From NCBI GenBank assembly GCA_036689225.1, contig CP144768.1:95306-127305 (forward strand): DNA of 32,000 nt. The letters are read 5' to 3'. Position numbers and translations under genes: made by a program. Positions 12,353 to 32,000 of this stretch are shown piece after piece; position 1 is the stretch's first letter, and every line of letters starts with the position of its first letter. This DNA comes from Candidatus Saccharimonadota bacterium. Lineage in GTDB: Bacteria; Pseudomonadota; Gammaproteobacteria; Enterobacterales; Enterobacteriaceae. The notes below the pieces were generated by a model. That model saw only the letters and a list, made by a program, of their open reading frames with translations, was not told the DNA's origin and did not search any database.

Positions 12353-13273
12353 ATGAAAATTATAAATAATGTTGCTATATTTTTTGGTGGTAATTCTTCT
12401 GAAAGAAATATTTCTATAGAATCTGGTTATTCTATTTTTAGAATTTTATTAAAAAAAAAAATAAAAGTTTTTCCTGTAGATTTAAAATATTTTTCTTTAA
12501 ATGATTTTTTGAAAAAAAAAATAGATAAAGTTTTTATAGCATTACATGGAAAAATAGGAGAAAATGGAAATATACAAGGTTTTTTAGATTTTTTAAATAT
12601 TTCTTATACTGGAAGTGGAGTTTTTACTTCATCTTTATGTATAAATAAATATAATACTAAAAAATTTTTAAGTATATATAATATAAATGTATTACCTGAT
12701 TTTCTTTTAAAAAAAAATATAATTATTAAGAATAATTTTTTTAGATTATATAAAAAAATTTTATTTAAATTTAATGTTCCTTTTATATTAAAACCTAATG
12801 ATCATGGATCAAGTATAGGTTTAAATTTAATAAATAATTTTATTGATTTTAAAAATTATTTTAATAAAAATATTAATTTTTTTAATGATTTTATAGTAGA
12901 AAAATATATTTTTGGTGATGAATATACTGTTGCTATATTAGATGGTAAAATTTTATGTCCAATTAATATTAAATTTAATAATAAAATTTTTGATTATTAT
13001 ACAAAATATAAAAATATTAATAATTTTTCTTATTCTAATAATATTAAAATAAATATTAAAAATAAATTGATTGATATATCTAAAAATATATGAAAAATTT
13101 TAAATTGTAAAGGTTGTGTAAGAATAGATTATATTATAGATAAATTTAATAATATATGGTTTTTAGAATTAAATACTATTCCTGGAATGACTAATACTAG
13201 TTTAGTTCCAATTTGTGCTAAATTTTCTAATATTAGTTATTCTAAATTAATATTAAAAATTTTATATTGTTAA
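12353..13273 (+). CDS. ddl: D-alanine--D-alanine ligase
   Basis: '[19 protein letters not shown]', '[19 protein letters not shown]', '[13 protein letters not shown]', 'GDEYTVAIL' and, after TGA 13091, '[10 protein letters not shown]...[18 protein letters not shown]' match Ddl. The product is 306 aa, the same as E. coli DdlB. It ends at TAA 13271-13273. Confidence 0.92.
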
Positions 13274-13563
13274 TTTATAATTTTAATTTTTTTTATTTTT
13301 GGATAGTTTATTTTTTTTATTATTTTTTTATTTTTTTTAATTAAGTATTTTTTTATATTTTTGTTATTAGTTTTTATATATATATTATTTTTTTTTATAT
13401 TTATTATTTTATATTTTTTATTATTTTTTTTTAATAAAATATTGTTTATTTTTTTATTAATTTTTTTTATTAGTTTACTTTTTAATATTATTGAATATAA
13501 ATTACTTTTTTTTTTAAGATTATTAATTATTTTTTTAAATAATTTTGGTTTTTTATTTTTCAT
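13270..13563 (-). CDS. Hypothetical 97-aa Lys/Asn/Ile-rich basic protein (possibly a spurious ORF in a poly-T scar)
   Basis: The ORF runs from ATG 13563 to TAA 13270-13272, antisense to its flanking genes. No motif is recognisable. The plus strand here is strongly T-rich, as over real minus-strand genes in this window, but that bias alone also generates such ORFs. Confidence 0.2.
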
Positions 13564-13680: not shown

Positions 13681-16182
13681 ATGTTTATTAAATTATTTTC
13701 TAATATTTTTAATAATAAAAATAGAAAAAAAATTAATTATTTTTATAAAATTATAGATAAAATTAATAGTTTAAAAAATACTTTTTCTAAATATTCTGAT
13801 TATACTCTTAAAAGTAATACTAGTATATATTGTAAAATGTTAAATTATAATAATATTTATGATTTTTTACCTTATATATTTACAAATATATATGAATCTA
13901 TAAAAAGAGTTTTTGGAATTAGATTATTTGATGTTCAATTATTAGGAGCATTATCATTATATGATGGATATATTATTGAAATGAAAACAGGAGAAGGTAA
14001 AACTATTACTTCTACTTTATCTGCATATTTTTATTCTTTGTTTAAAAAAGGTGTTCATATTATAACTGTTAATGATTATTTAGCTAAAAGAGATTGAGAA
14101 AATAATAGTAAATTATTTAATTTTTTAGGTTTAAATGTTGGTTTAAATTTACCTAATATGTCATTGTTAGAAAAAAAAAAATCTTATTTATGTGATATTA
14201 CTTATGGTACTAGTAGTGAATTTGGTTTTGATTATTTACGCGATAATATGGTTTTATCTAAAAATGATAAAGTTCAAAGAAAAAAATTATTTTATGCTAT
14301 TTTAGATGAAGTTGATTCAATTTTAATAGATGAATCTAGAACTCCTCTTATTATATCTAATGATTCTGAATTTGTTAATAATTTTTATAAAAAAATAAAA
14401 GAAATTATTTTTAATTTTAAACCTGGATATAAAGAGAATTATAATGATAATTTGAATGATAAAGATTTTATAATTGATAAAAAATTAAATCAAATTTTTT
14501 TTACTGAAAAAGGTTTTATTAATATAGAAAAAATATTTATAAAAACTAATATAATTAATAAAAGAAAATTTTCATATAATATTAAAAATATTAATATTAT
14601 AAATTATACTATTTCTTTATTAAAAGCATATTATATTTATAAAAAAAATGTTGATTATTTAGTTAAAGATAATAAAATAATTATTATAGATGAAAATACT
14701 GGTAGAATGGTTCCTGATAGAAGATGATCTGATGGATTACATCAAGCTTTAGAAATTAAAGAAAATGTTAAAATAAATTGTGATAATAAAATATTAGCTT
14801 CTATTACTTTTCAAAATTATTTTCGTATGTATAAAAAAATATGTGGTATGACTGGTACTGCTATAACTGAAGCATCTGAATTTAATATAATTTATAATTT
14901 AGATACTATAGTTATTCCAACTAATAAACCTATGATTCGTATTGATTATAATGATTTAATTTATTTAACTGAAAAAGAAAAAATAGATTCTATAATATAT
15001 GATATAAAAAATAAACATATTAAAGGTCAACCAATATTAGTAGGTACTACATCTATTGAAAAATCAGAATATTTATCTTTTTTATTATCTAAAATTGGTA
15101 TAAAAAACAATGTTTTGAATGCTAAATATCATATGTTTGAAGCTAATATTATTTCTAAAGCTGGAAAATTAGGTTCTGTTACTATTGCTACTAATATGGC
15201 TGGTAGAGGTACTGATATAGTTTTAGGTGGTAATTTAATTGATGAAATATTTAAAATTAAAGATAAAAAATTAAATAAAAATAAAATAGATTTAATTAAA
15301 AAAAATTGAAAAAAAAATCATAATTTAGTAGTTTCTTTAGGTGGATTATATGTTATAGGTACTGAAAAATATGAATCTAGAAGATTAGATAATCAATTAA
15401 GAGGTAGATCTGGTAGACAAGGTGATCCTGGATCTTCTAGATTTTATTTATCTATGGATGATTCTTTAATGCGTATTTTTTCTTCTAAAAAAGTTATTTA
15501 TTATATGAGAAAATTAGGTATGAAATATGGTGAATTTATAGAACATCCATGAGTATCATTTTCCATTCAAAATGCTCAAAAAAAAGTTGAAAGTCGTAAT
15601 TTTGAAATACGTAAAAATCTTTTATATTATGATAATATTTATAATGATCAAAGAAAAATTATTTATTCTAAAAGAAATGATATATTATATTCGAAAAATA
15701 TATATAAATATATATGTAAATATATTAAAAATATAGTAAATAATTTTTTATTTTTATATTTTAATAATAGGATATTATTTAATAAATATTTTAAATATTT
15801 AAATGTTAAAATATTAAATTTATGATTAATTAATTATGATTTTTTTAAAATTTATAATTTTATTTTAAATAAAATAATATTTTTTTATAAAAAATGTAAA
15901 AAAAAAATTAATAAAAATATATTATATAAATTACAAAAAAATATAATGTTAAAAACATTAGATATTTTTTGAACAGAATATTTATATATAATTGATAATT
16001 TAAAAGAAGGTATAAATTTATGTATTTATGCTCAAAAAAATCCTAAACAAGAGTATAAAATAAAATCTTTTAATATTTTTATAAATATGTTAGATAATTA
16101 TTATATTGAAGTTATAAAAATTTTTTTAAATTTACCTACAGATTATAATAAATTATATAAATTTATAAATTTATATTTATAA
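13681..16182 (+). CDS. secA: Preprotein translocase ATPase SecA
   Basis: Frame 1 is continuous through several TGA codons. '[28 protein letters not shown]', '[18 protein letters not shown]', '[21 protein letters not shown]', 'W(TGA)[12 protein letters not shown]', 'GMTGTA', '[17 protein letters not shown]', '[37 protein letters not shown]' and '[11 protein letters not shown]' match SecA. TAA at 16180-16182 gives 833 aa, ending before the C-terminal Zn-binding tail of E. coli SecA. Confidence 0.95.
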
Positions 16183-29296: not shown

Positions 29297-30298
29297 ATGA
29301 CTATTAGAATAGGTATAAATGGTTTTGGTAGAATTGGTAGATTAGTATTTCGTAATTCTCAATTTAAAAAAAATATTAAAGTTGTAGCTATTAATGATTT
29401 AATTAAAATTGATTATATGGCTTATATGTTGAAATATGATTCAACACATGGTCAATTTAAAGATAATATTATTATTAAAAATAATAATTTATATGTTAAT
29501 GATAATAAAATATATGTAACTTCTTTTAAAAAACCTAGTGATATTCCTTGAAATAAATTTAATGTTGATGTAGTTATTGAATCTACAGGTATTTTTTTAA
29601 CTAAAGATTTATCTTATGGTCATATTTTAGCTGGAGCTAAATATGTTGTAATGACTGCTCCATCTAAAGATGATACTCCTATGTTTGTAATGGGTATTAA
29701 TCATTATAGTTATAATGGTCAAAGTATTGTTTCTAATGCTTCTTGTACTACTAATTGTTTAGCTCCAATAGTTAAAGTTATACATGATAATTTTAATATT
29801 ATTGAAGCTTTTATGACTACTATACATGCTGTTACTGCAACACAAAAAGTAGTAGATAGTTTTTCTTTAAAAGATTGGAGAGGTGGTAGAAGTGTTTTTG
29901 GAAATATTATTCCTTCTTCTACTGGTGCTGCTAATGCTATAGAACATATAATTCCTGATTTAAAAAATAAAATTACGGGTATGGCTTTTAGAGTACCAGT
30001 TTCTAATGTTTCAGTTATAGATTTAACTGTTAGATTAGATTCTGATGTTACTTATGATAAAATATGTTCTTCTATGTATGAAGCTTCTAAAAGTTATTTA
30101 AATGGTATTTTAGGTATTACATATGATGATGTTGTTTCAAGTGATTTTAATGGTGAAAAATTAGTTTCTATTTTTGATGCAAAATCTACTTTATTATTGA
30201 ATAGTAGGTTTATTAAATTAGTTTCATGATATGATAATGAAACAGCTTATTCTGAAAAAGTATTAGATTTAGCATCTTATATATATTATTATAATTAG
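29297..30298 (+). CDS. gapA: Glyceraldehyde-3-phosphate dehydrogenase A
   Basis: '[15 protein letters not shown]', '[11 protein letters not shown]', '[12 protein letters not shown]', '[10 protein letters not shown]', 'WRGGR', 'IIPSSTGAA', '[16 protein letters not shown]' and 'W(TGA)YDNE' match GapA. The product is 333 aa, ending at TAG 30296-30298. GGGG lies 4 nt upstream of the ATG. Confidence 0.96.
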
Positions 30299-30379: not shown

Positions 30380-31945
30380 TTATTTATTTTCTATTATTTT
30401 TCTTCTTATTATTTTATATCTTCCTTTAATTTTTTTTTGATTTATTTTTTTTGATATAAATTTTATATATTTTTTTATTAATATTGTATTAAATCCAAAT
30501 TTTCTTAATAAATAATTATTTATTAATTGTTCATTATTTTTTAATATTATTTTTTTTGTTATTTCATGTATTTTATATGCATTTTTTCTTTTTATTATTT
30601 TATATAATTTTTTATCTAATTTTAATAATTTTTTATATTTTTTATTTTTATTTTTTTTTGGTTGTCATTTTTTATTAAAATTAATTAATTTAAATTGTTT
30701 ATAATATAATTGACTATTTATATTATTATGACCTAATATTTTATAGAAAAACATATCCTCATCATATTTTTTTCATTTTTTATCTTTTGTAAATCATTTT
30801 TCAAAACATATTCTACTATATATAGATCTTGTGTCTTTAAATGTTCTTTTTTCATTATTAAAAAAGGATTTTGATATTTTATTAAATGTATTTGATAAAT
30901 AATTACTTATTTGATAATTTTTTGATAAATATTTATTTTTTTTTTTTTTTATATTATTTATTATTTTTTTTAATATTTTGTTGTTTCTTATTTTGTTAAT
31001 TTTTTTTATAAATAGTTTTGGTTTACATAATAAATATATATTATATTTTTTTTTATTTTTTATTTTAGCTTGTCCTTTAAATTCTATTTTATAATTTTTA
31101 TTTATTATTTTAAATTTACCTATTTTTATTATTTCTATCATTCTTCTTCCAGATACTGCTGATAATGCAAATGATAAATGTGCTATATTTTTAATATTAT
31201 TAAGTTTAGTATTACTATTTAATATATTAAATATTTCTTGTATGTAATTTTTATAATTTATTAATATAATATTACTTTTTTTATTTTTTAGTTTTTCATA
31301 TGACATTTTTTTTGAAATTAAAAGTTTTCTTTTATCTACTTTTAAATGAAATAATATTTCGTGATTTATTTTTATGTTTTTTATAATTTTTTTAATTTTT
31401 TTACCTTGTTGTATTTTATTAATTATATATTTATTTGATGTATATCATTTTTGATTAATAATATTGTTTAATTCTTTTTTTCATTCAGGAAATTTATTTA
31501 TTGAATATTTTATTATTTTTAAATTATTTTTAGTAGAATATATTTTGATTTTATTAATTTGTTTTATTATATTATTTATAAGTTCTAATTTTTTTAATAA
31601 TTTTTTAAATTCTATATTTATATTTTTTGTATTATTTATTTTATTTATATAATCTATTTCTTTTTTATAATATGAAAAATTTTTTTTTAGATATTTTATT
31701 TTTTTTTTAAAACTATGATGTTTTATATTTAAAAATTGTTTTCTTGATCTAGATATATATGTTATATAACTATTTATTGATAATTTTTTATCTTTTATTT
31801 TTTTTTTAAAATTTATTGCTTCTTTTTTATATAATTTATTTTTTTCTGTTTGTAATATATTTTTTGTTTCTATTTTTTTTATATTTTTATTTAATTTTTT
31901 AATTAATATATTTATATTTTCTTTCATAATTATATATTGTAACAT
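30380..31945 (-). CDS. tel: Protelomerase / telomere resolvase, TelN/TelK (N15-phage) type tyrosine-recombinase-fold enzyme
   Basis: Track ORFs 31481..31945 and 30794..31306 plus flanking sequence form one frame under code 4, with 5 in-frame TGA codons and TAA at 30380-30382 by my hand translation. It gives 521 aa from ATG 31945, or 515 aa from the likelier start ATG 31927 ('MKENINILIKKL'). The blocks 'YISRSRKQF..HHSF', 'NKFPEW', 'INHEILFHL', 'LSFALSAVSGRRMIEI', 'FKGQAK', 'FKDTRSIYSRI' and 'DEDMFFYKILGHNNINSQLYYKQFKLINF' correspond to conserved TelN/TelK blocks as I recall them, with the RxxE, K, R, H and nucleophile Tyr contexts. Confidence 0.88.
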
Positions 31946-32000
31946 ATTTAATAAATATACATATGTATATTTATTAAATATGTTACAATATATAATTATG
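31925..32000. repeat. Perfect palindrome of at least 76 bp (dyad between 31962 and 31963), truncated by the window edge; candidate telomere-resolution site or hairpin-telomere read-through
   Basis: I checked it base by base: position 31925+k is complementary to 32000-k for all 38 pairs, with no mismatch. The core is AATATAC-ATAT-GTATATT. Both candidate start codons of the adjacent protelomerase gene lie in the left arm. Confidence 0.9.

Follow-up and report, generated by a model that had tools for sequence, protein, structure and literature searches.

A recoded N15-type protelomerase gene and an adjoining palindrome suggest a linear, hairpin-ended chromosome in Candidatus Stammera capleta

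The window analysed here is a stretch of 32,000 nucleotides (nt) of contig CP144768.1 (assembly GCA_036689225.1, positions 95,306 to 127,305, forward strand). It belongs to the clade of Candidatus Stammera capleta, an extracellular pectinolytic symbiont of tortoise beetles and a known user of genetic code 4. The window carries tel, a gene encoding a protelomerase (telomere resolvase) of the TelK/TelN type, and, directly upstream of its start codon, a perfect palindrome that is predicted to be a telomere. The Stammera chromosome is probably linear with hairpin telomeres and has been deposited as if it were circular (probability about 0.75-0.8). An intact active site of the TelK type and a perfect cognate palindrome are sufficient, according to the biochemistry of the family, to linearise a circle, so the chromosome is most likely linear; in vivo it would have a linear topology and covalently closed ends. 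The gene itself is, almost certainly, recoded, ameliorated, vertically inherited and constrained. An initial annotation of the window had described tel as an ancient domesticated resident, a view that its recoding, amelioration and vertical descent support. The adjoining palindrome and the probably linear chromosome are the main consequence and go beyond that finding.

The tel gene is located at positions 30380..31927 of the window on the minus strand (ATG at 31927, TAA at 30380-30382) and encodes 515 amino acids under code 4. No TGG and no internal TAA or TAG are found among the 515 codons; additional stops, considered in the initial annotation as a sign of a pseudogene, are absent from the frame, which is intact over the 1.55 kb that had been given for it. 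Across this stretch, TAA or TAG interrupts each of the other five frames 11-79 times. The probability of 515 stop-free codons is about 5e-28 from base composition; the open frame is therefore not due to chance. The three Pfam domains of the phage enzymes are detected, the curated cut-off being 27 for each: ResT-TelK_cat (PF16684; 84.1 bits, residues 219-412, full profile 1-181), TelK_muzzle (PF20849; 48.8 bits) and TelK_stirrup (PF20818; 29.3 bits). A sequence search of the PDB matches phiKO2 TelK (2v6e) to residues 27-497 (E=1.5e-86). According to an alignment of 24 sequences, the window residues R262 (31142-31144), K288 (31064-31066), R367 (30827-30829), H400 (30728-30730) and Y409 (30701-30703; all minus strand) correspond to TelK R275, K300, R383, H416 and Y425, which are the Arg/Lys/Arg/His set and the nucleophile Tyr (Y425) of the TelK active site. 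The alignment with TelK stops at TelK residue 534 of 640; judged by it, the window protein is shorter than the phage enzymes by about 90-115 C-terminal residues. TelN's C-terminal domains are reported to be dispensable for telomere protection (PMC12624138). The window protein is 100% identical to the NCBI protein P0001, encoded on a contig of 268,407 base pairs (bp). It is a full protelomerase of the TelK/TelN type with intact catalytic residues, and is presumably catalytically active.

The palindrome extends over positions 31925..32000 and consists of two 38-nt arms that are 100% complementary, without a spacer. Its centre (31962/31963) lies 35 nt upstream of the tel ATG, which is overlapped by the inner arm; the outer arm reaches exactly the window edge (32000), and the full extent may exceed 76 bp. 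This sequence is predicted to be either a hairpin tip that was read through or the target site of Tel. The motif ATATGTTACAATA is present in the inner arm (31935..31947, minus strand) with a mirror copy in the outer arm (31978-31990, plus strand), and is found in the form WATATGTTWCAATA at the homologous place in 9 Stammera loci. The dyad core, AATATACAT|ATGTATATT in the window and ATTATACGC|GCGTATAAT in N15, consists in both cases of TATAC, four central bp and GTATA (TATACATATGTATA versus TATACGCGCGTATA). The centre of the site is A/T in Stammera, whereas it is CGCG in the sites of N15-type phages. Farther from the centre, the window sequence AAATATGTTAC lies in register with AAATAGGTTAC of the PY54 tel site; in this register the two sites agree at 18/34 positions, compared with a mean of 9.8 for shifted registers. 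The order, palindrome then tel, is the same as in N15 (telRL-telN), phiKO2 and phiHAP-1.

The tel loci of other Stammera chromosomes (L001, L002 and so on) bring together several kinds of evidence for chromosome ends. In L001, L006 and L007, sequences are joined by a run of five N (NNNNN) at 1-2 nt from the centre of the dyad; in L017 the join is close to that centre. Two complete palindromes, with a common core (ATTGTAACATAT...ATACAT| or a lineage variant) and different end-specific flanks, are found in each of L004, L005 and L015; one fold-back is found in L008. The perfect arms end exactly at NNNNN in L004 (41 and 50 nt), L015 (55 and 124 nt) and L008 (115 nt), and the palindromes of L005 have arms of 78 and 37-41 nt without NNNNN. 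In L008 and L015, the fold-back arm repeats the start of the tel coding sequence in reverse complement, over 16 and 63 nt, respectively. Such fold-backs, variable in length and specific to their flanks, are the product of reading through a hairpin tip or a replicated telomere junction, and not of a fixed protein-binding palindrome in a circle. The palindromes of L015 (5750-5753 and 5936-5940; CP144793.1) have 2-3 non-complementary bases at the dyad centre, and their centre sequence is not the ATACAT|ATGTAT seen in the group of the window.

Contig ends are found at the same place. Logan contigs begin 53 nt (L016), 48 nt (L019) and 19 nt (L021) upstream of tel, and the NCBI record CP043978.1 (L020) begins 39 nt upstream of it. 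CP043985.1 (L002) ends inside tel, where it is fused to GC-rich sequence. The fused part (the last ~850 bp of this 'complete genome', positions 1-850 of L002) is insect retroelement-like by eye; through its fusion to tel at the 5' end, the N-terminus of the annotated protein P0003 is artificial (MISHPSETIKQHRN...). The end of this record looks like a chimeric assembly at a chromosome end. In L003 (~9948; CP144815.1), an NNNNN gap is found inside tel and the N-terminal ~230 codons are missing from the record. P0015 (316 amino acids, on a 304,518-bp contig) is a similarly truncated Tel. Both truncations look like assembly problems at the tel locus rather than pseudogenes.

Most of these records originate from one source study, in which Illumina reads were assembled with MEGAHIT. 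For 27 of 50 genomes the chromosome came out as a single contig, and the start was afterwards placed at oriC by GC skew. In the records rotated to oriC, tel lies near the middle (109-156 kb in records of 213-314 kb). Resetting the start to oriC joins the two contig ends in the middle of the record, which explains the NNNNN joins at tel. At the tel junction, the GC skew turns from positive to negative in all nine loci profiled; the junction is the replication terminus.

The following scheme would account for these features. An ancestor of Stammera would have captured tel from an N15-like phage-plasmid, before the sampled lineages diverged and before UGA came to encode Trp. The gene would since have been inherited vertically, its composition being driven to the extreme A+T bias of the host, and its cognate palindromic target would have arrived with it and would still lie directly upstream of the start codon, like telRL in N15. 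Acted on by an active protelomerase, the target palindrome would yield two hairpins with covalently closed ends. From a central oriC, replication would proceed bidirectionally to both ends and on past the hairpin turns. In the palindromic junctions replicated in this way, Tel would make cuts six base pairs apart and seal each cut strand to its complement, a resolution that would restore the hairpin telomeres and separate the daughter chromosomes.

The tryptophan codons date the arrival of tel relative to the change of code. The initial annotation had reported five in-frame TGA codons, four of them at sites of Trp in TelN; their coordinates are exact, and the TelN motifs that it had named (YPDW, SDDW, DPRW, SRTWRP) match N15 TelN letter for letter in the aligned columns. 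Trp149 (31481..31483, in KFPEW) has Trp as its counterpart in TelN, TelK and PY54 Tel, and in each aligned Stammera orthologue with sequence at this column; Trp161 (31445..31447, NQKW) is Trp in TelN and TelK; Trp385 (30773..30775, DKKWK) is Trp in 24 of 24 aligned protelomerases; Trp421 (30665..30667, NKKWQP) is Trp in TelN, TelK and PY54 Tel. The remaining codon, Trp378 (30794..30796, FEKWF; all minus strand), corresponds to Phe in TelN and TelK and to Trp in PY54 Tel and in the aligned Stammera orthologues except L016. For four of the five codons, TelN and TelK both have Trp in the aligned column (hypergeometric P=1.3e-7).

Trp is encoded by 71 TGA versus 2 TGG in 24 open reading frames (ORFs) of the window, and by five TGA and no TGG in tel. 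The two residual TGG are located in the ORF 12353-13273 (ddl-like by position) and in gapA (29297-30298); recoding is near-complete, not total. Three loci from the largest genomes, L008 (CP144771.1), L014 (CP144787.1) and L015 (CP144793.1), use the standard code: in each of their tel genes Trp is written six times as TGG and never as TGA, in columns of the alignment where the recoded Stammera lineages have only TGA. Their flanking genes contain 32-33 TGG and 0-1 TGA. A basal Stammera lineage using code 11 has been independently reported (bioRxiv preprint 10.64898/2026.05.24.727570). As TGG occupies the same Trp sites in the three sampled standard-code loci, tel is older than the reassignment of UGA; it was resident beforehand, and its Trp codons were converted from TGG to TGA in situ. 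The initial annotation had proposed that the gene evolved in this lineage after or during the reassignment. Residence in the lineage is borne out; the timing is not, since TGG in L008, L014 and L015 places the arrival earlier. One horizontally acquired gene can be followed, as in a natural experiment, from phage relatives (45% GC, TGG) to standard-code Stammera (14-17% GC, TGG) and recoded Stammera (10-15% GC, TGA).

The composition of tel is that of its host. The gene has a GC content of 10.6%, a GC content at third codon positions (GC3) of 3.1% and 56% of Lys, Asn and Ile residues; the means of 22 host genes are 15.1%, 2.6% and 42%, which agrees with the Lys/Asn/Ile-rich, host-like composition noted initially. 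Phage telN has a GC content of 45% and a GC3 of 46% (N15/phiKO2), and GC3 is 30-46% across the phage genes compared. The synonymous codon fractions of tel and of the host genes are correlated (r=0.90). It is the most A+T-rich and Lys-rich gene of the window.

Constraint and common descent are indicated by the orthologues. At least 15 of them (45-78% identity) are found on NCBI contigs of 212-314 kb. The frame is open in all 11 full-length loci examined, and the catalytic residues are kept in all orthologues except that of L008. Ratios of nonsynonymous to synonymous change (dN/dS; NG86) are 0.28-0.69 for tel and 0.16-0.83 for adjacent housekeeping genes (alaS, aspS, gapA and dnaQ) in the same genome pairs, values that are crude at 3% GC3 and meaningful only against neighbouring genes. 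Between the window and L004, amino acid identity is 78% for Tel, 76% for AlaS and 79% for GapA. In a tree obtained by neighbour joining from Kimura distances, not by maximum likelihood, the Stammera enzymes are monophyletic in 200/200 bootstraps; a long stem joins them to the enterobacterial N15/KO2/PY54-type enzymes, among which they are nested. Branching within Stammera is not to be trusted in this tree: only 117/200 bootstraps recover the standard-code trio (L008, L014, L015) as a group. With the phage enzymes, identity is 30-36%. A tblastn of Tel against phages covered 14-28% of the query, and phage loci were used only for full-length Tel sequences and tel sites. The dN/dS comparison, which the initial annotation had proposed, agrees with its statement that the gene has remained under selection; the phylogeny that it had also proposed shows the nesting among phage protelomerases.

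An origin of tel from a recent prophage, a phage-plasmid or a co-assembled contaminant has practically no likelihood, and this reading was rejected, as it had been initially. Its closest characterised relatives are indeed the phage-plasmid enzymes of N15, phiKO2 and PY54. However, TGA at the Trp sites would terminate translation under the standard code, the GC3 of 3% is far from the 30-46% of the phage genes, and the enzyme is only 30-36% identical to theirs. The neighbours are host genes (gapA, rnhA, dnaQ, asnS, porin, alaS and recA). This synteny is repeated in at least 11 other Stammera chromosomes, tel being found in every fetched locus between a gapA-rnhA-dnaQ-asnS-porin arm and a ruvC-aspS-argS-prmC-prfA arm. 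No phage gene is found next to tel in the window or in the fetched Stammera loci; in particular, no phage partition, replication, immunity or structural gene surrounds tel in the window. In N15, phiKO2, PY54, VP882 and phiHAP-1, a ParA-like partition gene adjoins tel, and anti-repressor or repA genes are found beyond it. A decaying pseudogene or a neutral relic still open by luck is also very improbable, slightly less so. The high A+T and Lys content of tel, dN/dS values reaching 0.69 in some pairs and the active-site substitutions of L008 could be expected of such a relic; against it stand the 515 open codons, the open frame in the 11 full-length loci, the catalytic residues conserved in all other orthologues and a rate within the range of essential neighbours. 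The pseudogene reading was thus rejected.

The chromosome could also be circular, with Tel and its palindrome as a phage remnant that disrupts short-read assembly or with Tel repurposed (DNA binding, regulation). This is unlikely, although several points speak for it and against a linear chromosome, the crudeness of dN/dS at this GC3 being a further weakness. The ends are known here from assembled sequences alone, and fold-back contig ends could in principle be assembler artefacts. The window holds one palindrome, cut by its edge. Public records are labelled chromosome or complete genome, and their authors deposited them as single chromosomes and handled them as circular. The in-register similarity of the palindrome to N15 telRL is 15/34 and to the phiKO2 site 14/34, the latter no better than some shifted registers; with so weak a match, homology of the site is supported chiefly by the TATAC..GTATA core, by the agreement with PY54, which alone stands out, and by a place upstream of tel that is conserved. 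In L014 (5728-6001; CP144787.1), the sequence is continuous from ruvC to an intact tel, without palindrome, WATATGTTWCAATA motif or N gap; the GC skew still flips at the tel junction. The telomere was removed in curation, or else the lineage is different in this respect. In L008 (6001-7554; CP144771.1), the 517-codon tel frame is intact but several catalytic residues are substituted despite the 115-nt fold-back: SGRK for SGRR, Ile for the equivalent of TelK R383, Tyr for that of H416, and a nucleophile Tyr displaced by one position. TelN has a role in end protection that is independent of catalysis (PMC12624138). Capping of this kind, or a second copy of tel, could explain the paradox of L008.

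Several features nevertheless speak against a circle. Palindrome arms of 38 nt should not stop assemblers provided with 150-nt reads, and independent assemblers stop at the same point. Neither the flank-specific fold-backs of 41-124 nt, in which the 5' end of tel itself recurs as its reverse complement, nor two palindromes with different flanks can be produced from a circle. In addition, an intact active site next to a perfect target would linearise a circle, as was done on purpose in engineered Escherichia coli (Cui et al. 2007, described in PMC12624138). The linear chromosome with hairpin telomeres is thus preferred.

Among known systems, TelN of N15, TelK of phiKO2 and PY54 Tel are the closest by sequence; TelA, ResT and the engineered linear E. 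coli are the closest by role. The phage enzymes have the same three-domain architecture (muzzle, catalytic, stirrup) and the same active-site residues as Stammera Tel, and their palindromic target likewise lies directly upstream of the gene. Stammera Tel differs in its missing C-terminal ~90-115 residues, its code 4 gene with 10.6% GC and its 30-36% identity. Unlike in the phages, tel is not accompanied by partition, replication or repressor genes, and it would serve the main chromosome of a bacterium, whereas the phage enzymes serve a prophage of 46-52 kb. TelA of Agrobacterium tumefaciens C58 (linear chromosome/chromid) and ResT of Borrelia are resident resolvases of cellular hairpin-telomere replicons that replicate bidirectionally from an internal origin (PMC10686437, PMC5388405). 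They resemble Stammera Tel in this role, as resident resolvases of a cellular linear replicon. They belong to distant subfamilies without the TelK-type muzzle and stirrup arrangement, whereas Stammera Tel clearly belongs with the enterobacterial phage enzymes. Unlike Agrobacterium and Borrelia, Stammera is an obligate symbiont of insects, passed on vertically, and its genome has 0.21-0.31 Mb. In the E. coli engineered by Cui et al. (2007), N15 tos/telRL and TelN were placed at the terminus; the cells are viable and dif/XerCD is dispensable, according to the account in PMC12624138. This gammaproteobacterial chromosome, too, has its N15-type protelomerase site in the terminus region, and the Stammera junction likewise lies at the GC-skew terminus. 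The engineered case is artificial and recent, whereas that of Stammera would be natural and older than the divergence of its lineages and the change of code.

A hairpin-telomere replicon maintained by a telomere resolvase is of a known kind. New here are the host, an obligate insect symbiont, and the domestication of a phage module at the replication terminus, retained through a change of the genetic code. It is rather probable that Stammera capleta is, to our knowledge, the first obligate insect symbiont, and the first natural gammaproteobacterial main chromosome, kept linear and hairpin-ended by a domesticated protelomerase of the N15/PY54 type. The literature searched, which did not include the original genome papers (Cell 2017, Current Biology 2020), yielded no publication that connects Stammera with a protelomerase, with telomeres or with a linear chromosome.

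If the chromosome is linear, the 50-odd deposited Stammera chromosomes would need to be re-examined as linear, hairpin-ended molecules, their published circular maps being artefacts of the joining of contig ends. An insect symbiont with a tiny genome would be added to the few bacteria that have hairpin telomeres (Borrelia, Agrobacterium). A maintenance module of a phage-plasmid would have become an essential chromosomal function, the natural counterpart of engineered linear E. coli, and would have lasted for the entire radiation of the symbiont and across its change of code. Linearity might explain how so reduced a genome copes without chromosome-dimer resolution. Topology also bears on assembly, on the assignment of oriC and the terminus, and on which replication and segregation genes can be lost by reduction.

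The arm that carries tel varies among the loci. The gene is found on the gapA arm in the window, L001, L006, L008, L014, L017 and L020, and on the ruvC/aspS arm in L004 and L005 (the closest relatives of the window), L007, L015 and L016; the terminal tel segment has switched chromosome arms repeatedly. Inverted pairs of a cold-shock gene, csp, flank the tel/telomere junction in L007 (5506-5718 and 7779-7991) and L001 (9778-9961 and 11643-11885), and the two copies of a genome are 99% identical in DNA. These pairs look like subterminal inverted repeats kept uniform by recombination; recombination between them would swap tel-bearing terminal segments between the arms. No csp is found between tel and gapA in the window.

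The window has a GC content of 14%, and code 4 gives it a dense, ordinary set of bacterial genes, with DegP, porin, RecA, DnaQ, RNase H and GapA identified by Pfam. The gapA gene (29297..30298, plus strand; domains Gp_dh_N and Gp_dh_C) is convergent with tel and lies 81 bp from its stop codon. A Lys-rich ORF of 97 codons without Pfam match (13270-13563, minus strand) occupies the gap upstream of an 833-codon ORF (13681-16182) that is secA-like by eye only; it may be spurious or encode a small basic protein.

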